A stretch of DNA of 64,000 nucleotides from Savitreella phatthalungensis (GCA_051599415.1 AP039701.1:62001-126000); one strand, 5' to 3'. Positions 22,260 through 36,811 are shown, counted from the first letter of the stretch. Numbers and translations are program-made. Notes: generated by a model from the sequence alone, not told the origin.

Positions 22260-24017
22260 CTACTGCTTCAGTGCTGGGAAGAGCAGGACCTGTCGGATGG
22301 AAGAGCTGTCGGACAAGAACATGGCAAGTCTGTCGATACCTGCTCCCCAACCGCCCGTCGGCGGGAGACCCCACTCGAGCGCTGTGCAGAAGTTCTCATC
22401 CACGAGTTGAGCCTCGTCGTCACCCTGATCTTTCTGTGCTGCCTGCTCCTCGAAGCGTGCACGCTGATCGAAGGGATCGTTCAACTCTGTGTACGCATTG
22501 CAGATTTCCTTTGTCGCGACAAAGACCTCGAAGCGCTCGCAGATTCCAGGCACGTCGCGGTGCGACTTGGCGAGAGGCGACATCATTTGTGGGTGACCGG
22601 TGATGAAGAGCGGTGAGACACCGAGGGGCTCGATGAACTCGCCGACGAGCTTGTCAAGCAGGCGAGCGGATGTCTGCGGAGGAGAGCAATCGAGCTTCTC
22701 GCGGGCGACAAGATCCCGCAGGAACTTGTTGGCCTCGTCCGTCTGGAGATCCTTAGCGGCCGGAAATTTGACGCCGAGACGCTCCTCGAGGAATGGGATC
22801 ATGTCGACGCGACGCCATGGTCGTGCCCAGTTGATCTCCATCTCCGGTCCCTCTGGTCCTTCCGGATGGTACTTGGTCACATAGCCACCTGTCAGCTCCT
22901 TGACGAGCTCCGAGATCATGAGTTCTGTCATTTCCATCAGATCGTAGACGTCTGCATATGCCTGGTAGAACTCGCAGGTGGTGAATTCTGGGTTGTGGGT
23001 GAGATCGATTCCCTCATTGCGGAACTGACGACCAATTTCGTAGACGCGGTCCATGCCACCAACGACAAGCATCTTCAGGAAGAGCTCTGGCGCAACACGC
23101 ATGAACAAGTCGCGCTTGAGCTCGTTGTGGTGTGTGATGAACGGCTTGGCTGTTGCACCGCCTGCGATCTGGTTCATCATTGGCGTCTCCACCTCAAGGA
23201 AGTCGCGCGCATCGAGGAAGCGCCTGATGTACTGGATGATGCGGGTCCGGGTGATGAAAACATCGCGACTTTGAGGGTTCATGATCAAGTCGAGGTAGCG
23301 CTGACGGTAACGTGTCTCGACGTCCTTCAACGAGCCCTTTGGAAGAAGATGCAATGTCGGTGTCAGTAGGGTGATCTCCTGGCAGAAGACCGAGAGCTCT
23401 CCTCCCTCGCGACCCTTAGGCGACGTAACGCCAGGGTATCCACGCACGCCGACAATGTCACCACGCTTGATGATCTCGTGCATCTGCACAAAGTCCTTGC
23501 CCTCAGCACAGTCCTGAACTTGGCACATGATCTGGATACGCTGGCCGTCAGAGATGATATCGTAAAAGCGCAGCTTGTTGCCTGCCTCACGCTTGTTGTG
23601 GACGCGGCCGGCAACGGTCACGGTCGTGTCCTTGACAAGGTCACCACGAGCGAGGTGGCTGTACTGCTTGACGAAATCGGGTAGCCGTGTTGAGACATGA
23701 AACTTGTGGGGGAATGGGTTGACAGCATCGGGATTTCCCGCAGCATATTCCGAGCGCATCTTGCTCACCCATGCCGACCGGTACTCATGGAACTCCTCTC
23801 CAGTGAACTCTCGCTCCTCAGGGTTGACAGCAGCCTTGACAGCTTCTCTCGGTGGCTTTGCTGCCTGCTTTGCAGCCTTTTCTGCTTGCTTAGCCCTGAG
23901 CTTCTCGCGCTTCTTGAGCTCGGTCTTAGAGACGTGCTCTCCAGTGACTGGATCAATCAAGGTCTTGACTGTTGTGGATTCCATCTGCGCAGTCACTTCC
24001 TGCACCTCGTCAGACAT
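22260..24017 (-). CDS. KRS1: Cytosolic lysyl-tRNA synthetase (class II)
   Basis: 'NPFPHKF', OB-fold, '[10 protein letters not shown]', '[15 protein letters not shown]' and '[15 protein letters not shown]' motifs. Likely start is MSDEVQ at 24017; an upstream in-frame ATG lies at 24146. Confidence 0.97.
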
Positions 24018-24485
24018 CTTTCGATCACCTAGTCTAGCAAGAAGAAGAAGACAGATGAGTAGTTGGATGACGGTGTCCAGGAGAACACAATTGTGACCAG
24101 AGTAACTGTATGTGTCTTTCCAGGAAGTAACTTGCTCATCCTGCATCCATCAGATTTTTTTTCTCTTGTACACTGATCATGTTCTTGGGCGCAAATATGA
24201 GTGCATTGAGTGAACTGCCAACCATAAATTAAATTAATTTATTTGAAAAAGATGCAATGTTCGTGTATCTACTGCCCACACGGTGAGTGATATGGACGTA
24301 TGCACGCAAGTACGTGTGCATGGTCAATGGTACTCTGAGCTGCAGCCCTTTGCTGGTGCTGTGCTCGTAGCATGGTCTAGAGGTCTTCCAATGGACAATA
24401 TGAATAGATTGATCATACATGACTCGTTAAGGAGTTTCAGCTGTGTAGGAGTTGCATTGTGGCCAAAATGGCGGACAATTCCTCC

Positions 24486-25268
24486 TTATCTCCATGATCC
24501 TATGTACTCGCGCATGCGCTGGGCAACCTGTTCAGCTGTGAAGTTCCGGCCGAAAGCATCGACAAACTCACCTTCTGGGTCCATCAGGTAAAAGAAAATG
24601 GAGTGATCCACAAGGTAGTCCTCACCTTCCTTGACCTCCCTTGGCGTACTGAAGTAGACGCGGTAGGCCTTGCATACCTGCTTCACTTCCTCGTAAGTGC
24701 CCGTCAGCCCGAGAATACTGTTATCAAACTCTGCCAGGTATCGCTTCAGGTCTTCAGGAGAGTCGCGATTCGGGTCACAGGTTATGAATACCGGCTTGAC
24801 CACCTCCCTATCCTTGTTGACCTCGGAGAGGATGATAGCCATCTTATCGAGCTCCTCGGGACAAATATCTGGGCAACGAGTGAAGCCAAAGTAGACAAGC
24901 AAGTACTTGCCCTTGAACGTATCCTGCGTGACGCGATTACCGTCATGATCAACCAAGCTGAACGGACCTCCCACTCTTGGTTTGCCTGCGGGCTTGTTGG
25001 CCTCAATCGCTTGCTGGACCTTCACCCGCTTCCTCTCTGAGTTGAAGTACAATCCCAGAAGAATCGCTGTGGCGACAAAAACGGCAGCACTTGTCGCTGA
25101 GAATGGTCCAATCCGAGATCGCTCTTTGTTCTGAGGGGCGTCTTCCCGCAGTACGCGGGAAGTTGTGAGTAATCGAGAGTCAACAGGTGACCGAAAACAT
25201 TGTGGACGAATGAAGCTGCGAGCACTCGATGGCAGCGAGCGTGCCAGACAGCGTCGTATTGGCAGCAT
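24486..25268 (-). CDS. SCO1: Mitochondrial copper chaperone Sco1
   Basis: Mitochondrial-type N-terminus, one TM helix, 'YFGFTRCPDICPEEL' (CxxxC) and 'YLVDHSIFFYLMDPEG'. Confidence 0.96.
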   Translation of the reverse strand: MLPIRRCLARSLPSSARSFIRPQCFRSPVDSRLLTTSRVLREDAPQNKERSRIGPFSATSAAVFVATAILLGLYFNSERKRVKVQQAIEANKPAGKPRVGGPFSLVDHDGNRVTQDTFKGKYLLVYFGFTRCPDICPEELDKMAIILSEVNKDREVVKPVFITCDPNRDSPEDLKRYLAEFDNSILGLTGTYEEVKQVCKAYRVYFSTPREVKEGEDYLVDHSIFFYLMDPEGEFVDAFGRNFTAEQVAQRMREYIGSWR

Positions 25269-25584
25269 TGATATCGATCTCTCTCAACTGAAGGTCTCTT
25301 CGCGGAAAATGTGCTGAAGTCTGTGCTTGGAAGAGCTTAACAATCTCTATGACATAAAATGTGGTCGATTGAAAGAAGTGTGCTCAGGTAACAGGGAACT
25401 CGATAAAATCATATGCACGCACGTGTATGCAGGCTAAGTGACCAGTCTCTCAATGCACAACTGCAGTCAAAGGCAAGATCTTCAGCACTTCCTCAGCATT
25501 TCATCGCTGTCTTGAGCACATAGCGGGAGCTTACAGAGAGCTTTATAGTGGTCTCGTTGCTCATGAGCTGCTGCTGATGGATAT

Positions 25585-28500
25585 ATGTCCATAAATTTAG
25601 GTCTGCAACGCATCACTCGCGTGCTTGAACGCCTAGGTGGACCGCAAAGGCGCTATGACGTGATCCATGTAGCTGGCACAAATGGCAAAGGCTCTGTCTG
25701 TGCTATCATCGCTGCAGCGCTGACAAGCGCTGGCTATCGAGCGGGAAGCTTCAATACGCCGCATCTTGCATATCCGAGAGATTCCGTGCGTGTCAACAAC
25801 GTGCCCATCACCGCTGTATCATTTGCAAAGACACAGCGCCGAGTGGAAGCAAAAGCTAAAAGATCTTTAAACGCAGCAGACGGTGATCTGACTCCATTTG
25901 AAAGTCTTTGTGCTACGGCGTTTGATCTGCTCGCTCAACACAAGGTGGATGTTTCCGTGGTCGAGTGTGGTATGGGCGGCCGGACGGACGCTACCAACGT
26001 CGTTAGTCCTGTGCTATCAGTTATCACTCGTATAGGTCTCGATCATCAGGGCTTCCTCGGAGACACGCTCACGGACATTGCAACCCACAAAGCTGGTATC
26101 ATCAAGTCTGGAGTTCCCGTTGTTGTTGCACAGGCGCAAGACTCGCCAGACGTCTTGAACGTCTTCCGGCAGGAAGCGAATGCAAAATCCGCCGACTTGA
26201 CCATAGCAGACAACACTGCTGCAAAAGACTTCATTCAGCAGAATCAGATCGTTGCTAGGACGGCATTACAAGTGCTTTCGGAGCGCTACCCAAGACTCAC
26301 GCATGATGTCATTGAAGCAGCGTTGCAGACACTTCCACCGGGCCGCTTCGAACAAATGGACTTGTCCAGCTTGGGAGGTCCAGCCACTGCAATAGTTGAT
26401 GGCGCACACAACGCGCAGGCATGGCGAGCGTTATGCGGTCAGCTACCGGCTAATCAGACAAGGGCTTTTGTGGTGGCTCTGACACGTGGTAAAGATGCAA
26501 AGGACATGCTAGAGCTCATCAGACCTGGTGACCATGTTCATGCAGTCGAGTTTGAACCTGTCGAGGGGATGCCCTGGGTGGCCTCGACTCCTGCCACCGA
26601 GATCGTACAATCATTGCAACAAGCTGGTGTGGAGAGCTGCACTGCCCATGGTAAAGATGTTCTCGCAGCCCTAGCTGCATGCAAGCACGAGCATACTGTG
26701 ATATGTGGCAGCTTGTATCTGGTCGGCCAGCTGAACCGGATGCTGGAGGCCAGCGAGGTGAGACTCAAGCTACTGTCTGACATTACGAAGAGTCGTGCTT
26801 ATGAGCCAGCGGCTATCGAGCGTAGTGTGTCTGAGTTCTGGGCTGGTAGCGAAGCGCCAGCCCGCAGAGGACCAACCCGATCGTTCTTGCTGCCGCCGCC
26901 GAACGTCACGGGCTCTTTACATATCGGACATGCGCTAACATTAGCCGTGCAAGATGCATACGCGAGGCACTACGCCGGTCAGGGCGATGTGGTGCAATGG
27001 GCACCAGGTACAGACCATGCAGGAATCGCTACTCAGAGCATCGTCGCCCGGCAACTTGTCAAGCAGGGTCGTGATCCGACCGCCATGACCACCGCAGAGC
27101 TCACAGAGGAAATCTGGCGTTGGTGCGATCAGTACGGCGACCGTATCAATGGACAGATACGACGGCTCGGAACGCGTCTCGACTGGGATCGCGAGTACTT
27201 CACTCTGGATGAAGACCGGTCGGCAGCTGTCAAAGAAGCCATCGGCCGGCTGTGGCAAGACGGCCTAATTTACAGAGCCGAGCGCATGGTCAACTGGTCT
27301 GTCGGGCTAGGAAGCGTAATAAGCGACATAGAAACTGATGCGCGGCCAATCGAAACGCCCGAGAAGGTGGACGGGGTGATCTTTGGGAAGCTGTGGCGGA
27401 TACGCTACACAGCTGTTGATTCCACTCAGGACGTCATCGAAGTCGATACGACCCGGCCTGAAACAGTGTTCGGCGATCGTGCAATCGCTGTACATCCTGA
27501 GGACGAGCGGTGGTCTCACTTGGTTGGTAAACGTGTACATCATCCACTTCTTGACGGCGTGACGCTCCTGATCATCGCAGACAGCTTTGTCGATCGCAAC
27601 TTCGGTACCGGAGCAGTCAAACTAACTCCCGCCCACGACGCTGATGATTACGCAGTGGCAAAACGCCGACACGATGTTCCAATCATTCCAGTCTTCGGCA
27701 AAGACGGCAAGATGCTGGAGAGCTGTGGCGTTCCCACTCTGGCCGGCATCGATAGATTGCAAGCTCGATTGCGGGTTGTCAAATTGCTGCAGCAGGCAGG
27801 TGCTCTTGCGGGCGAGCAGTCTCATCGCATGTCAATCAAGACTTGCAGTCGCTCGGGCAGCGTGGTAGAGCCGATGCTGCTTCCACAATGGTACATCTCC
27901 ATGGAACCATTGGCAAGAAGAGTGCTCGAGCAGGACAGCATTCGCATGTCCGCGCGCACAAAAGAGATATGGCATCAGTGGTTGACCAAATGTCAAGACT
28001 GGTGTATCAGTCGGCAGCTCGTCTGGGGTCACAGAATTCCTCTCTGGCGCCGCGAGGATGATCCAAATACTTGGTTCTTCGCAGAAGACGAGCAAGCAGC
28101 GGTTGCAAAAGCCGGGTCATCCGCCGTGGTCCAAGATGCTGACGTGCTCGATACCTGGTTCAGCGCAGGTCTGCTACCTCTGTCTGCCTACGGATGGCCA
28201 TCATGCCTCGAGAAGTCATCGTACCCACTGACATTCATCGAGAGCGGGCCGGATATCCTATTCTTCTGGCTGGCGCGAATGGCAATGCTCTGTACGCATC
28301 TGTCCCCGGACAACAGCGCGCCATTCCGTGAGATCCTCCTACACCCAATCGTTCGCGATGCACAAGGTCGCAAGATGTCAAAGTCACTCGGCAACGTGAT
28401 AGATCCGCTGGATGTGATCGACGGCGTTTCACTGGAATCAATGAAGGAGGCATTGGCGTCCGGAAATTTGAGCGCCGCCGAAGTCAAGCGCTCGTCTGCC

Positions 28501-29508
28501 GAACTTTCCCGGCAATATCCGGCAGGCATCAAGGCGATGGGTACAGATGCATTGCGATTCGCCCTCGTTCATGCTACAGTGCAAGAACACTATCTCAACC
28601 TCGACATGCGCGCAGTCCAACAAGGTCGATACCTCTGCGGCAAGCTCTGGAATGCCGCTCAATTCTTTTTGACGCACAAAGCTCAGGTGGTAGACACCGA
28701 CGACAAAGAAACCCACACGGCTTTCGATGACCGCTGGATCGGGTCTCGTGTCGTAGACCTGGCTGCCATCGTTGACGAGAGCGTGGAGTCACGCGAGCTG
28801 TGGCGTGCGGCAGAGGCTATTCGGAAATTTGTCGTGGATGACCTGTGCGACGTGTTTGTGGAGCTTGTGAAGCAAGAGGTATTTGTTTCTGGTGTCGCTG
28901 TGGCGTCGAAACTCCGCTTGCTGCGAACGATCCTGCTGCAGACGGTCGCGATCACCCATCCGTTCATGCCATTCGTGACAGAGGCCATCTGGCACCTCCT
29001 CGGCCAGACAGAGTCCCTTGCACATCACGTCCGCGATCGCAATCTCACGCTTCCGTCAGCAGGTTTGCATGATTCGGTCGCCATGGCGGCGATGTTGCAG
29101 ATTGTGCGCGCGATTCGAGAAGAGCGCGACACAAAGGTACACTCGGTGATCTGTAACATTCACGATACTCCGCTGGCGGACAGTATCGCGTCCAAGGCTG
29201 GTGTCCTTCGCGGCCTTTGCAATGTGCAATCGCTCACTGTTGGAAAGTCTTCTGCTTCTGGTGCTGGACTAAGCAAGGTCGTGGCGCCTGGTGTCATTGT
29301 TCACATCACCCGGAGCGCTGATGCTCAGTCAGCGCCTCCTGAGGATGTACAGGTGTCGAAGAGGCGAGAGAAACTGACAATCAAGCTGCAGAAGCTCGAG
29401 GAGCGGGTCGACTCTGCAGATTACCAATCGCGAGTGCCGCAACAAGTCAAAGATAAAGATGCGAAGCAGCTGGCAGAATTGCGAGCATTGCTTCGCCGTG
29501 TAGATTAA
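25585..29508 (+). CDS. FOL3-VAS1: Fusion protein: dihydrofolate synthase (Fol3/FolC) + valyl-tRNA synthetase
   Basis: Single 1307-aa ORF. Residues 1-~385 are FolC-like ('HVAGTNGKGS', 'ECGMGGRTDATN', 'IGLDH', 'KAGIIK', 'PGRFE', 'DGAHN', 'VEGMPWV', 'GSLYLVG'). Residues ~405-1307 are ValRS ('PPPNVTGSLHIGH', 'GTDHAGIATQ', 'TTRPET', 'GTGAVKLTPAHD', 'DWCISRQLVWGH', 'KMSKS', C-terminal coiled-coil arm). Confidence 0.92.
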   Translation: MSINLGLQRITRVLERLGGPQRRYDVIHVAGTNGKGSVCAIIAAALTSAGYRAGSFNTPHLAYPRDSVRVNNVPITAVSFAKTQRRVEAKAKRSLNAADGDLTPFESLCATAFDLLAQHKVDVSVVECGMGGRTDATNVVSPVLSVITRIGLDHQGFLGDTLTDIATHKAGIIKSGVPVVVAQAQDSPDVLNVFRQEANAKSADLTIADNTAAKDFIQQNQIVARTALQVLSERYPRLTHDVIEAALQTLPPGRFEQMDLSSLGGPATAIVDGAHNAQAWRALCGQLPANQTRAFVVALTRGKDAKDMLELIRPGDHVHAVEFEPVEGMPWVASTPATEIVQSLQQAGVESCTAHGKDVLAALAACKHEHTVICGSLYLVGQLNRMLEASEVRLKLLSDITKSRAYEPAAIERSVSEFWAGSEAPARRGPTRSFLLPPPNVTGSLHIGHALTLAVQDAYARHYAGQGDVVQWAPGTDHAGIATQSIVARQLVKQGRDPTAMTTAELTEEIWRWCDQYGDRINGQIRRLGTRLDWDREYFTLDEDRSAAVKEAIGRLWQDGLIYRAERMVNWSVGLGSVISDIETDARPIETPEKVDGVIFGKLWRIRYTAVDSTQDVIEVDTTRPETVFGDRAIAVHPEDERWSHLVGKRVHHPLLDGVTLLIIADSFVDRNFGTGAVKLTPAHDADDYAVAKRRHDVPIIPVFGKDGKMLESCGVPTLAGIDRLQARLRVVKLLQQAGALAGEQSHRMSIKTCSRSGSVVEPMLLPQWYISMEPLARRVLEQDSIRMSARTKEIWHQWLTKCQDWCISRQLVWGHRIPLWRREDDPNTWFFAEDEQAAVAKAGSSAVVQDADVLDTWFSAGLLPLSAYGWPSCLEKSSYPLTFIESGPDILFFWLARMAMLCTHLSPDNSAPFREILLHPIVRDAQGRKMSKSLGNVIDPLDVIDGVSLESMKEALASGNLSAAEVKRSSAELSRQYPAGIKAMGTDALRFALVHATVQEHYLNLDMRAVQQGRYLCGKLWNAAQFFLTHKAQVVDTDDKETHTAFDDRWIGSRVVDLAAIVDESVESRELWRAAEAIRKFVVDDLCDVFVELVKQEVFVSGVAVASKLRLLRTILLQTVAITHPFMPFVTEAIWHLLGQTESLAHHVRDRNLTLPSAGLHDSVAMAAMLQIVRAIREERDTKVHSVICNIHDTPLADSIASKAGVLRGLCNVQSLTVGKSSASGAGLSKVVAPGVIVHITRSADAQSAPPEDVQVSKRREKLTIKLQKLEERVDSADYQSRVPQQVKDKDAKQLAELRALLRRVD

Positions 29509-31148
29509 CGTACAATAGGCCCTTCTTCAGCGGACTGTCTTTTGAGAAGAACGACATCTCCCAGTCGTCTGGGATCATCGTGAAATCTGCTGTTGAACCA
29601 TCGCTTGTATTCGGTGTATCTGGTGCCCTCTGGAGTACCATCCAGCACCGCTTGGAGTGTTGCTTCGAAGGTCGCCACAAATGCTGGCCGTTTTTCCCAC
29701 TCGTCCAAAGCGATGATGACATCCCAGGTCAATCGATCAAGCTCTCTTTCCTTGCCTTCGTCGTCTGGCGTTAGCTGAGTATGCAGACGCGCAGGCTGAC
29801 CGAAGTACGGGGCAGCGTCGTAAAAGCGATCTGCTTCGTCGCGGTACGTGGCGTTGACTGCCAGTGGCTGTGTGAGCGTGTGAGGAGGTTCGCAGGTGAG
29901 GAAGCGAAGGTTGTGAGCGACTGTCGGACCTGCGTGGTGGTGAGCGTGCCACGGCGTCGAATGGCACGGCATCAGGAACAGGGTTCTGCCGACAGAGAAC
30001 TCGGTTGGGTGTTCCCGAATGTACGTCATCAAGTCCATGACGCCGCGCTGGTGTGTGTGCGTGCCAGCTCTTGCCAAGACAATGCTCAGAACGAGCAAAA
30101 TGAGGAATACGCCGCGCGCGAGGACACGCGAGCTGGCGTGTAGCCTTGCTGCGCCAGACGCTGCAAAACCCAGCAAAATGGGCTGCAACGGTTGTACGAA
30201 GCGCGCTTCCTTGTGGGCCAGCAGGGAATATGCGACCAAAGTGGAGGCGATCGTCGCCAAGAATTGGTGGCGATGAGGAGTACCAACGATAGAGCGGGTG
30301 CTGACCAAAACTCCGATGATGAAAATCGGCACGAAGGTCATAAGAAGCATGGGCAGACCCTGTGAGAGGTAGTAGTGCCAGTCGTTTACGCCGTAAAAGC
30401 TCGCCTTGCCGCGCAAGTTGAACGAGAAAAAATTGTACGCAGCCAAGGTTAGCTTACCGTAATAGAAGCTGTCGACGATGAGGTTATACATGACGATAAC
30501 GGCGGCCGCAAGTAATGATTCGAATGCGAACGTGTAGGTGTGGTCTCGGAGCTGGTACAAGGCAGGAACGAGCCAGAACAGGATCGTGGTTGGACGCAAT
30601 AAGGTTCCGAGGCCGATAAAACTGAACGCCTTAATCAAGGAGATGACGTAGCGTCCGAACTCATCGTCCGTCTTGAGCTGCCTATTTGCGTCGAACGGCC
30701 AGTAGTTCAAGGCCATAGCAACCAGCATCGTCTCTAGAGAGTTGGAAAATGTCCGAGGTGAGACATAGTAGTTCCACGGCGATACGACAGTCAGAATGAG
30801 TCCCCACCTACCTGTTGACGGCCATTGCTTTCGGATGAACTTGGCAATGAAGTAATCCGTGGCTGCTGCCTGGAGAGCGCCAATTATCTTCGGCACGAGT
30901 AAGATCGATGAAGGACTATCGAGACCGAGGAGCTTCAGCAAAAGGAAGGGTACAGCAAATATCATCTGATGAGCTGGGCCGCGAATTCCCGTCTGATACT
31001 CCCAGGGAACAAAGCCATACCCGAAGACGAGAGCATGCGCTGGCTCAATTGACTGATAGTGCTCGTCTGGCTGAAAGAAGGTCTCTATTGTCAGACTGTT
31101 CCACAGTCGAAAGACAAGCAATGCCAAGAACAGCTTGCTCTTGAGCAT
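29505..31148 (-). CDS. GPI10: GPI mannosyltransferase 3 (PIG-B)
   Basis: 'TFFQPDEHYQSIEPAH', 'RTFSNSLET', 'WHYYLSQGLP', 'HKEARF', 'LMPCHSTPW', 'FLTCEPP' and 'DEADRFY' motifs. First ATG at 31148. Confidence 0.95.
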   Translation of the reverse strand: MLKSKLFLALLVFRLWNSLTIETFFQPDEHYQSIEPAHALVFGYGFVPWEYQTGIRGPAHQMIFAVPFLLLKLLGLDSPSSILLVPKIIGALQAAATDYFIAKFIRKQWPSTGRWGLILTVVSPWNYYVSPRTFSNSLETMLVAMALNYWPFDANRQLKTDDEFGRYVISLIKAFSFIGLGTLLRPTTILFWLVPALYQLRDHTYTFAFESLLAAAVIVMYNLIVDSFYYGKLTLAAYNFFSFNLRGKASFYGVNDWHYYLSQGLPMLLMTFVPIFIIGVLVSTRSIVGTPHRHQFLATIASTLVAYSLLAHKEARFVQPLQPILLGFAASGAARLHASSRVLARGVFLILLVLSIVLARAGTHTHQRGVMDLMTYIREHPTEFSVGRTLFLMPCHSTPWHAHHHAGPTVAHNLRFLTCEPPHTLTQPLAVNATYRDEADRFYDAAPYFGQPARLHTQLTPDDEGKERELDRLTWDVIIALDEWEKRPAFVATFEATLQAVLDGTPEGTRYTEYKRWFNSRFHDDPRRLGDVVLLKRQSAEEGPIVR

Positions 31149-34618: not shown

Positions 34619-36811
34619 ATGGGGGCTATCGCTGACCAGGTCAAGCTTACCCTGGCTCTCAAGGCTAAGCCATTCGCCTATGGACCTCTCTTCATCGCCA
34701 GTGCAGTCAATGCATCAAGCACAGTTCGTCTAGTTGAGCCTAGCTTCAAGGATGCAGATCTTATCTCTGAGAAGGAGGCAGGCTCAACAGCTTCGCTTAC
34801 CGGCACTGAGAAGCAGCAGACCCAGGTGCAGGCGATCATCGAAGAGCTCGTGAAGGTCTACCCTGACGTCCTTGCAGGCCGAAACCAGGCACTCACAAAT
34901 GAGTGGCTTGCATTTGCCGCAGATCGTCTTTCTGGGGACTTCAAGAAGGTTCAGCCAGCTCTTGTCGAGCTTGACGATCACTTGACGCTGCGCACATTCT
35001 TCACTGATCACAAGCTGACCGCTGCCGATCTTGCAATCTACGGTGCTCTACAGGGCAACGCTGCCGCGCTGGGCTCGATCAAGAAATCGACATTCGTCAA
35101 CCTCGGTCGCTGGCACAGACATGTCTCCTCTCTTTCCTTCATCTCTAGCGCGCTCGAGGAGATAGTCAAACAGAATGCAGCAGCCAAGTCTGCAGCAAAG
35201 GCTGCAAAGACTGCTTCCGGCAACGAGAAGAAGCAGGCAAGCACGGCCAACTTCGAGATTGGCCTACAGGATGCGAAGGAAGGTCAAGTAGTGACCCGTT
35301 TCCCTCCGGAGCCTTCAGGCTACCTGCACATTGGCCATGCCAAAGCAGCCATGCTCAACCAGTTCTTCGCAGAGAAGTACAAAGGAAAGCTGTTGATCCG
35401 CTTTGACGACACGAATCCGTCAAAGGAGAAGCAAGAATACCAGGACAGCATCATCGAGGATTTGGCTATGCTTGGCATCAGTGCTGAGAACCTGTCCTAC
35501 ACATCCGATCACTTCCAGACACTGTACGACTACGCAGTCCAGCTCATCAAGCAGGGCGATGCTTACGTTGATGATACGACGCAGGAGGTCATGCGCCAGC
35601 AGCGCATGGATGGTGAGCCATCGAAGCGCCGCGAGCGCTCCGTGGAGGAGTCTCTCCAATTGTTCACCGGGGAGATGAAGAACGCGACGGAGATTGGCCA
35701 GCAGAACTGCCTGCGTGCGAAGATGTCATTCGACAACGCGAACAAGGCGATGCGCGATCCAGTGATCTATCGTGTAAACTTGCAACCACACCATCGCACC
35801 GGCGACGCATGGCACATCTACCCGACGTACGACTTCTGCTGCCCGATCGTCGATTCGATCGAGGGCGTGACACATGCGCTGCGTACGATGGAGTATCGCG
35901 ACCGCAACCCGCAGTACGAGTGGTTCCTACACAAATTGAACTTGCGCTTCGTTCACATTTGGGATTTCTCCCGCATGAACTTTGTGCGGACGCTGCTGAG
36001 CAAGCGTAAGCTCCAGTGGTTTGTCGACCAGAAGCTCGTGGGTGGCTGGGACGATGCACGTTTCCCGACAGTTCGTGGTGTGCGGAGACGCGGTATGCAG
36101 GTGCCAGCGCTCAAGGAGTTCATTCTGTCCCAGGGACCTTCTCGCAACATCAACAACCTCGACTGGTTTGGTATCTGGTCAATGAACAAAAAGGTCATCG
36201 ACCCAATCGCGCCTCGCCACGTCGCTATCGTTGACCCGATCAAGATCAAGCTGAGCGGCGTCGACAAGTCGTACTCCGAGAAGCGTCCGAAGCACAAGAA
36301 GAATCCTGAGGTTGGCGAGAAGGACACCTACTTCTCAGCCGAGATTGTGCTTGACCGAGACGACGTAAATTCTTTCGACGCAGACGAAGAGGTCACACTG
36401 ATGGATTGGGGCAATGCGTTTGTGCGCAAGGCCGCAGATGGAACAGTATCGATGGACCTCCATCTCGAGGGCGACTTCAAGAAGACTTCGAAGAAGGTGA
36501 CGTGGTTGTCCACGACACCCGGTCCCCAAGAGGTCGAGCTCGTCGACTTTGACTACTTGATCACAAAGGAGAAACTTGAAGAAGGTGACGATGTCAAGGA
36601 CTTCCTGACGCCGCAGACTGAATTCCGCACACCTGCAATCGCCGACATCAATGTGCGAGAACTTCGCAAGGGGGATGTGATTCAATTCGAGCGCAAGGGA
36701 TACTACGTTGTCGACGAACCATTCACCGAAGGCAAACTAATCGTCCTCTTCAACATTCCTGACGGCAAGGCAGTGAGCAGGTACGGGGTCAAGCCCACAG
36801 ACACGAAGTGA
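34619..36811 (+). CDS. GUS1: Cytosolic glutamyl-tRNA synthetase
   Basis: GST-like N-terminal domain, 'TRFPPEPSGYLHIGHAKA', 'RFDDTNPSKE', 'LLSKRKL' and 'IQFERKGYY'. Confidence 0.97.
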   Translation: MGAIADQVKLTLALKAKPFAYGPLFIASAVNASSTVRLVEPSFKDADLISEKEAGSTASLTGTEKQQTQVQAIIEELVKVYPDVLAGRNQALTNEWLAFAADRLSGDFKKVQPALVELDDHLTLRTFFTDHKLTAADLAIYGALQGNAAALGSIKKSTFVNLGRWHRHVSSLSFISSALEEIVKQNAAAKSAAKAAKTASGNEKKQASTANFEIGLQDAKEGQVVTRFPPEPSGYLHIGHAKAAMLNQFFAEKYKGKLLIRFDDTNPSKEKQEYQDSIIEDLAMLGISAENLSYTSDHFQTLYDYAVQLIKQGDAYVDDTTQEVMRQQRMDGEPSKRRERSVEESLQLFTGEMKNATEIGQQNCLRAKMSFDNANKAMRDPVIYRVNLQPHHRTGDAWHIYPTYDFCCPIVDSIEGVTHALRTMEYRDRNPQYEWFLHKLNLRFVHIWDFSRMNFVRTLLSKRKLQWFVDQKLVGGWDDARFPTVRGVRRRGMQVPALKEFILSQGPSRNINNLDWFGIWSMNKKVIDPIAPRHVAIVDPIKIKLSGVDKSYSEKRPKHKKNPEVGEKDTYFSAEIVLDRDDVNSFDADEEVTLMDWGNAFVRKAADGTVSMDLHLEGDFKKTSKKVTWLSTTPGPQEVELVDFDYLITKEKLEEGDDVKDFLTPQTEFRTPAIADINVRELRKGDVIQFERKGYYVVDEPFTEGKLIVLFNIPDGKAVSRYGVKPTDTK

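Follow-up and report, generated by a model that had tools for sequence, protein, structure and literature searches.

In most of the Gram-positive bacteria that we sampled, the genes for valyl-tRNA synthetase (ValRS, encoded by valS) and for a folate ligase of the FolC family lie next to each other, and in S. aureus the T-box-controlled valS transcript extends into folC (PMC5094136). Here we analyze a fungal gene in which the same two enzyme families are joined in a single open reading frame (ORF). It occupies positions 25,585 to 29,508 of a 64,000-nucleotide stretch of the Savitreella phatthalungensis genome (GCA_051599415.1 AP039701.1:62001-126000), called the window below and numbered from its first letter. 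The gene had been picked out in a first reading of that sequence (the original prediction), which proposed that a Fol3-type folate enzyme was fused to a ValRS, probably the mitochondrial paralogue. S. phatthalungensis is a leaf-surface yeast of the class Taphrinomycetes (Taphrinales incertae sedis; species description, PMC8877625).

The bacterial linkage was counted in evenly drawn genome samples from two phyla, Bacillota and Actinomycetota, with adjacency requiring that valS and folC share a strand, that valS come first and that ≤3 kb separate them. Among the Bacillota, valS was directly upstream of folC in 46 of the 57 genomes with both genes, in 39 of them with a gap of ≤500 nt (61 genomes sampled; three without a folC match and one without valS over the cut-off were left out); in seven of the 11 non-adjacent genomes the two genes were on different contigs. 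The corresponding figure for Actinomycetota was 31 of 38 (41 genomes sampled; two flagged as unpublished, G064 and G081, and one without folC were left out), with full-length matches of 515-600 bits taken as ValRS where a genome had none higher. Each sample's center genome had been preselected for adjacency, and without the centers the counts are 45/56 and 30/37. The bacterial order valS-folC was therefore given correctly in the original prediction. To our knowledge, this conserved pairing is unexplained. The fungal gene is an analogue of the bacterial operon and not a member of it: the bacterial genes are separate ORFs, valS then folC, whereas the fungal gene is one ORF, FolC then ValRS, and the two linkages are independent because both fungal halves are of fungal descent.

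Each half also has a stand-alone fungal counterpart. Fol3, the dihydrofolate synthetase that adds glutamate to dihydropteroate, has the same N-terminal start, P-loop, core motifs and length as the FolC module, which falls inside Ascomycota Fol3; the fusion differs in that its C-terminus continues into ValRS and its N-terminus lacks the usual acidic third residue. Schizosaccharomyces Vrs2/Vas2 belongs to the same paralogue clade as the ValRS half and is likewise a class Ia ValRS with an editing domain and without a Lys-rich cytosolic extension, but it is a stand-alone protein of 940-957 residues with a basic leader, in place of which the fusion has a 391-residue FolC module. Synthetases covalently joined to a second enzyme are represented among NCBIfam models by LysX (LysRS plus lysyl-phosphatidylglycerol synthase) and IleRS-GNAT. 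The second enzyme of LysX consumes the charged tRNA, whereas we know of no comparable substrate link between Val-tRNA and dihydrofolate synthesis. By analogy, the nearest precedent for how the fusion may work is Aco2-bL21 of S. pombe, a fusion of aconitase with a mitochondrial ribosomal protein from which aconitase by itself is also produced, by way of an internal poly(A) site (bioRxiv 10.1101/2019.12.16.879015). Aco2-bL21 comes from the same subphylum and shares the order of an N-terminal metabolic enzyme before a mitochondrial translation component, with a fast-evolving linker; its partners are different, and it has a clear targeting peptide and the internal poly(A) site, neither of which was found in FolC-ValRS.

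The fused gene and its carriers

Translated from the plus strand, 25585-29508 is stop-free from end to end and yields a protein of 1307 residues with a computed mass of 143.7 kDa, in agreement with the ~143 kDa expected. Pfam and NCBIfam scans divide it into two parts, a complete FolC-family ligase (residues 1-391) and a complete ValRS (residues 404-1305). This is the single-frame arrangement that the original prediction had described, and the motifs HVAGTNGKGS, VEGMPWV, GSLYLVG, HIGH and KMSKS all lie exactly where it had placed them (Table 1).

Across 25400-29700, the Logan contigs from two sequencing runs (X1, depth 46; X2, depth 144) match the window sequence at every letter and without gaps, which excludes an assembler slip, including the stop or frameshift at the junction that had been named as the mark of an assembly error; the two runs are one sample, probably the source of the window DNA, and are not independent support. 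Run X3, of another study, contributed two short pieces (268 and 174 nt) that are ~99% identical. Chance is excluded because all 10 aligned homologues, 45-59% identical to the Savitreella protein, keep the junction. Its aligned pattern reads ICGSLYL(V/I)GQ, then a variable stretch, then Y(D/E/N)P..E...W and LLPPPNVTG.LHIGHALT, and the proteins come from separate assemblies held at NCBI, ENA, JGI and Logan.

A search of 5.8 billion proteins listed among its matches a Taphrina deformans protein of the same architecture (1371 residues, 44% identity, 100% query coverage), a partial protein of Protomyces lactucae-debilis that crosses the junction, and seven further same-architecture proteins from ENA, JGI and Logan. 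With residues 1-1200 as the query against 1.84 billion proteins, one representative per 50%-identity cluster, four of the 150 best matches start before residue 393, and all four are members of the fusion family. When 476 retrieved proteins were compared by BLAST with the FolC half, FolC and ValRS occurred together solely in P0001-P0010 and P0031; FolC was absent from the stand-alone relatives of the ValRS half in Schizosaccharomyces, Pneumocystis and Neolecta, which are other Taphrinomycotina. As judged from these proteins, the fusion is a trait common to Taphrinomycetes and is not private to the Savitreella genome.

Record P0031 ('Hortaea werneckii', 1095 residues) has the order ValRS-FolC and was considered as a second, reversed eukaryotic fusion. 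It was rejected because its identity to Paenibacillus valS-folC loci (L001-L080) reaches 89%, which identifies it as a bacterial contaminant contig with two adjacent genes merged in one model.

That record, in which a bacterial gene pair passes for one 'fungal' protein, and a doubtful 28-nt 'intron' in the public model of the Savitreella gene are the kind of errors that would favor an assembly or annotation artefact merging two neighboring genes. The artefact reading is nevertheless effectively refuted, since the frame is continuous in the raw DNA with no splice required, the two re-assemblies reproduce it, and the junction is conserved in 10 proteins of differing assemblies and sources. The gene fusion is confirmed as real.

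The public model of this gene (P0002, Savitreella phatthalungensis, 1296 residues) is 100% identical across 97% of the query and differs at the 3' end. Removal of 29407-29434 shifts its frame and leaves an unconserved tail of 22 residues, whereas the unspliced sequence reads ADYQSRVPQQVKDKD..., matches the C-termini of the homologues in the alignment and retains the ADY.SRVP..V motif common to all of them. The 3' end of the public model is therefore probably wrong. At the 5' end, the in-frame TGA at 25564-25566 terminates the frame upstream, so that the fused protein would have no N-terminal extension, barring an intron. Two tiny ATG frames also precede the start codon: ATG AGC TGC TGC TGA at 25563-25577, and an out-of-frame ATG at 25577 that stops at the TAA at 25592-25594 and overlaps the main ATG.

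The fusion is present but unremarked in public protein sets, where the T. deformans protein, for example, is a 'protein of unknown function' or a 'valine--tRNA ligase'. The original prediction knew of no description of this architecture, and we found none among about 8.4 million papers and preprints, subscription-only literature lying outside the search. What is new is a conserved, lineage-specific architecture made of two known enzymes.

Descent of the two halves

The FolC half matches NCBIfam folC (TIGR01499) at residues 7-386 with 289.2 bits (cut-off 162.65), spanning model positions 1-399 of 400, and Pfam Mur_ligase_M at residues 29-222 with 32.6 bits (cut-off 24). Its catalytic motifs (P-loop, ECGMGG..DATN, HKAGIIK and DGAHN) are intact in the alignment, and the core motifs presumably supply the metal-binding Glu and the carbamylated Lys. 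A search for stand-alone relatives, which admitted proteins of 220-700 residues, listed 120 matches of 364-608 residues, every organism-named one of which was fungal and several of which were named dihydrofolate synthetase or Fol3; the closest among these matches were fungal dihydrofolate synthetases at 33-45% identity, mostly 35-40%. In a FolC tree of 36 rows, with Met7-type folylpolyglutamate synthetases left out and Bacillales FolC as the outgroup, the fused FolC halves formed one clade (support 98) nested in the Ascomycota Fol3 clade (94), outside of which stood Mucoromycota and chytrids. By alignment and tree, the FolC half descends vertically from fungal dihydrofolate synthetases of the Fol3 type, to which it had first been assigned.

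The ValRS half is matched by NCBIfam valS (TIGR00422; residues 404-1295, 719.9 bits, cut-off 612.1), by NF004349 (residues 404-1305, 777.5 bits, cut-off 704, model positions 2-855 of 860), by Pfam tRNA-synt_1 (residues 430-1000, 360 bits) and, in the editing domain, by tRNA-synt_1_2 (residues 647-708). Of the domains that the original prediction led us to expect, Mur_ligase_M, folC, tRNA-synt_1 and Anticodon_1 were found. The best solved relative of this half is T. thermophilus ValRS (1GAX). Its catalytic and editing signatures, the latter being TTRPET and GTG..AHD, are intact and conserved across the alignment.

Three ValRS trees were computed: FastTree with 168 sequences, IQ-TREE with 48 rows under LG+G4, and IQ-TREE with 34 rows under LG+C20+F+G4. 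The fused proteins form one clade in all three (support 1.0 in FastTree and 100 in both IQ-TREE trees). This clade lies inside an Ascomycota clade with the Schizosaccharomyces 'mitochondrial valine-tRNA ligase Vrs2/Vas2', Pneumocystis, Neolecta, Peziza and Geopyxis, for which the Shimodaira-Hasegawa-like approximate likelihood ratio test (SH-aLRT) gave 99 under LG+G4 and 100 under LG+C20+F+G4. Canonical Dikarya ValRS (Ustilago VAS1, Malassezia 'mitochondrial and cytoplasmic', Orbilia) cluster with the plant and animal enzymes. Constraining the fused and canonical ValRS together was 157.6 log-likelihood units worse, with p = 2.7e-25 in an approximately unbiased (AU) test of a group chosen after tree inspection. 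According to these trees, the ValRS half is a Vrs2-type Ascomycota paralogue and not of the canonical VAS1 type, which places it in the mitochondrial paralogue group as originally proposed. In S. pombe, Vrs1 is reported to be cytoplasmic and Vrs2 mitochondrial, with Vrs2 essential and mitochondrial membrane potential lost in a vrs2 mutant (PMC8025305).

N-terminal comparison agrees with the expectation that the ValRS half would lack the Lys-rich extension. Canonical fungal ValRS carry long Lys-rich N-terminal extensions, while in stand-alone Vrs2-type proteins a short basic leader immediately precedes YDP...W, with which the ValRS part begins. FolC and the linker stand in the leader's place in the fused proteins, which leaves the ValRS half without a leader of its own. 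The Pneumocystis ValRS clusters that we saw (P0018, P0103 and P0243) are all in the Vrs2-type clade and have presequence-like N-termini; no canonical-type Pneumocystis ValRS was among the matches listed.

Because the fused proteins are one clade both in the ValRS trees (100) and in the FolC tree (98), the phylogenies indicate that the fusion arose once, in the shared ancestor of the sampled fused lineages (Savitreella, Taphrina and Protomyces; the named ones are all Taphrinomycetes). Both halves are nested in fungal clades, which points to the fusion of native fungal genes and not to transfer of a bacterial operon; a bacterial valS-folC pair acquired by horizontal transfer was rejected as the origin on these grounds.

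Working of the fused protein and competing explanations

We favor, at a probability of roughly 0.68, a single fungal fol3-vrs2 fusion that gave a bifunctional, partly mitochondrial enzyme of ~144 kDa, with a separate canonical ValRS in the cytosol. In this fusion the gene for a Vrs2 orthologue, the mitochondrial-type ValRS, has a Fol3-orthologue gene joined to its 5' end, and the fused protein would be made as one bifunctional chain of that size. At least part of it may be imported into mitochondria by the same signal that brings some of the Fol3 of yeast into the organelle, where the enzyme would charge mitochondrial tRNA-Val and synthesize dihydrofolate beside other mitochondrial folate steps, so that both activities would be tied to one promoter, one stoichiometry and one compartment. 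The cytosol is presumed to be served by a separate canonical (VAS1/Vrs1-type) ValRS. A mitochondrial route for Fol3 is plausible, yeast Fol1 and Fol3 being listed among dual-localized mitochondrial proteins in the available part of PMC5494306. The fused protein begins at the same conserved FolC helix as 95 of 112 stand-alone Fol3. At the usual third-residue site all seven fused N-termini have N or S, where 52 of 80 stand-alone Fol3 have D or E, and the fused N-termini carry added S/K/R residues.

Several points weigh against this interpretation. Inspection of the fused N-terminus revealed no canonical presequence, and the acidic residue is also missing in 28 of the 80 stand-alone Fol3, for which reason the more presequence-like character of the fused N-terminus is no more than suggestive. 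Mur_ligase_C (PF02875) scored 21.2 bits at residues 253-372, under the Pfam cut-off of 28.4; in the same C-terminal region, DGAHN is conserved and the TIGR01499 match spans it. The sequence of the FolC half is compatible with dihydrofolate synthetase and folylpolyglutamate synthetase specificity alike. Besides the after-the-fact choice of the AU-test group, a direct sister relation to Schizosaccharomyces Vrs2 had a support of 84 under LG+G4 and was not resolved under LG+C20+F+G4. No canonical ValRS of Savitreella, Taphrina or Protomyces was among the matches listed in two protein searches, each of which listed 120 matches ranked by similarity to divergent queries, one of them the Pneumocystis ValRS, itself Vrs2-type, so that a canonical enzyme could easily have been missed; the matches listed for the Pneumocystis query included no protein at all from these three genera. 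Finally, the fused product is predicted from the DNA.

The last two points bear on other accounts of how the gene is used. One is that the fused gene gives separate products, free Fol3 and/or free ValRS, through an internal poly(A) site, an internal promoter or proteolysis in the linker. S. pombe Aco2-bL21 offers a precedent in the same subphylum, with its truncated enzyme-only mRNA (bioRxiv 10.1101/2019.12.16.879015), and the linker varies and is probably flexible: in seven fused proteins, 42-63 poorly conserved residues extend from CGSLYLVGQ to PPPNVTG, and the variable linker accounts for roughly 10-30 of them. Against this, the aligned fused proteins have no conserved Met, sequence or basic cleavage motif in the linker, which is down to ~8 residues in the fused homologue P0007, and a released ValRS would be leaderless. 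The hexamer AWTAAA was found on neither strand within 25585-29508, a weak test given that fungal poly(A) signals are degenerate. We regard separate products as unlikely. Less likely again is that the fused protein is the sole ValRS for cytosol and mitochondria, with FolC substituting for the N-terminal appendage of cytosolic ValRS. The missing canonical enzyme among the matches listed would fit, as would the lack of an obvious presequence, by which much of the protein may remain cytosolic by default; but those matches came from the searches limited as described above, and the ValRS half lies in the Vrs2 clade, with union with the canonical clade rejected. Paths from it to other fused-clade members are also long, at 0.73-1.44 changes per column in the 48-row LG+G4 tree, compared with end branches of 0.13-0.39 for Ustilago, Malassezia and Orbilia (Dactylella 0.97), and long branches are, by general experience, commoner among organellar synthetases than among cytosolic ones. 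Both paralogues are, moreover, kept in S. pombe (PMC8025305).

It is very improbable that the FolC module has lost its enzymatic role and survives only as an appendage of ValRS with a structural, tRNA-binding or folate-sensing function. Non-catalytic appended domains are common on synthetases as a matter of general knowledge, and the Mur_ligase_C score under the Pfam cut-off also speaks for this reading. The P-loop, EcGmGG..DATN, HKAGIIK and DGAHN are all kept, however, and align to a solved folylpolyglutamate synthetase; the TIGR01499 match is full-length, at 289 bits against 162.65; and no stand-alone Fol3 from the fused genera was among the 120 matches listed. The bifunctional, partly mitochondrial enzyme thus remains the interpretation that we favor.

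Table 1. Positions of the fused gene, its modules and motifs, and neighboring genes, in window coordinates (aa, residues of the fused protein)
Feature	Positions	Strand	Remarks
Whole fused gene	25585..29508	+	1307 codons + TAG stop; no intron required; architecture kept in 10 aligned proteins
Putative Fol3-type dihydrofolate synthetase (FolC) module, aa 1-391	25585..26757	+	TIGR01499; fungal Fol3 relatives; tree
P-loop HVAGTNGKGS	25666..25695	+	Identical to P-loop of L. casei FPGS 1FGS; in 7/7 fused homologues with N-terminus
FolC core motifs ECGMGGRTDATN ... HKAGIIK	25963..26106	+	Aligned with corresponding motifs of L. casei FPGS 1FGS
C-domain motif DGAHN	26398..26412	+	D272-N276 at least 90% conserved in alignment; aligned with 1FGS
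VEGMPWV	26560-26580	+	Fol3-type motif
GSLYLVG	26707-26727	+	Terminal motif of FolC half
Variable linker, aa 392-403	26758..26793	+	FolC C-terminal helix to ValRS start; poorly conserved
Complete ValRS module, Vrs2-type paralogue, aa 404-1307	26794..29505	+	TIGR00422, NF004349, trees, AU test
HIGH signature, aa 446-449	26920..26931	+	H446-H449 invariant in 10/10 aligned sequences
Editing (CP1) motifs TTRPET ... GTGAVKLTPAHD	27448..27639	+	T622-T627, G674-G676, H684-D685 invariant
KMSKS signature, aa 930-934	28372..28386	+	In 7/7 homologues reaching the region
Anticodon-binding domain, aa 1049-1182	28729..29130	+	Pfam Anticodon_1, 70.6 bits (cut-off 25.1)
Public-model 'intron', 28 nt, GT..AG	29407..29434	+	Coding within the continuous ORF
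Glycoside hydrolase family 115 protein, 1097 aa	18248-21541	-	Xylan alpha-glucuronidase family
LysRS gene	22260-24146	-	TIGR00499, 599 bits
SCO1/SenC gene	24486-25268	-	Divergent; upstream flank of the fusion
Alg9-like mannosyltransferase ORF	29505-31148	-	Convergent; downstream of the fusion
Archaeal/eukaryotic-type GluRS gene	34619-36811	+	TIGR00463, 610 bits

Neighboring genes and what the fusion means

The fused gene is flanked by a SCO1/SenC gene, of a mitochondrial copper-chaperone family, and by an Alg9-like ORF whose end overlaps the stop codon of the fusion by 4 nt. Three aminoacyl-tRNA synthetase genes, the fusion among them, lie inside ~14.6 kb of the window, which looks denser than chance for a yeast genome of ~13 Mb. 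The glycoside hydrolase family 115 protein encoded further upstream is consistent with a plant-surface lifestyle.

Synthetase fusions are rare and are often pointers to hidden biology. The same two genes are adjacent in most Gram-positive bacteria sampled and may therefore be functionally linked, and the fungal joining of a folate-pathway enzyme to an organellar synthetase is independent of that widely conserved pairing. We suggest tentatively, and as the less probable course, that the fusion is a 'Rosetta stone' pointing to direct functional or physical coupling of ValRS and FolC, so far unrecognized, which also keeps bacterial valS and folC together. If so, folate status might tune the charging of Val-tRNA, for example, or ValRS might scaffold or regulate dihydrofolate or polyglutamate synthesis. 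Should the fusion be an accident of neighboring genes, it would be an ordinary lineage-specific one.

In either case, the finding corrects a public gene model and provides a clean molecular marker for the sampled Taphrinomycete lineages, and it would offer a natural example of a mitochondrial protein whose own presequence disappeared when it became the C-terminal partner in a fusion. A functional link would open a testable route to why ValRS and FolC travel together. Mitochondrial translation initiation requires formyl-folate, and such a link may thus reveal how mitochondrial translation is matched to folate synthesis; in Taphrinomycetes, mitochondrial translation would then be bound to folate supply in one polypeptide.

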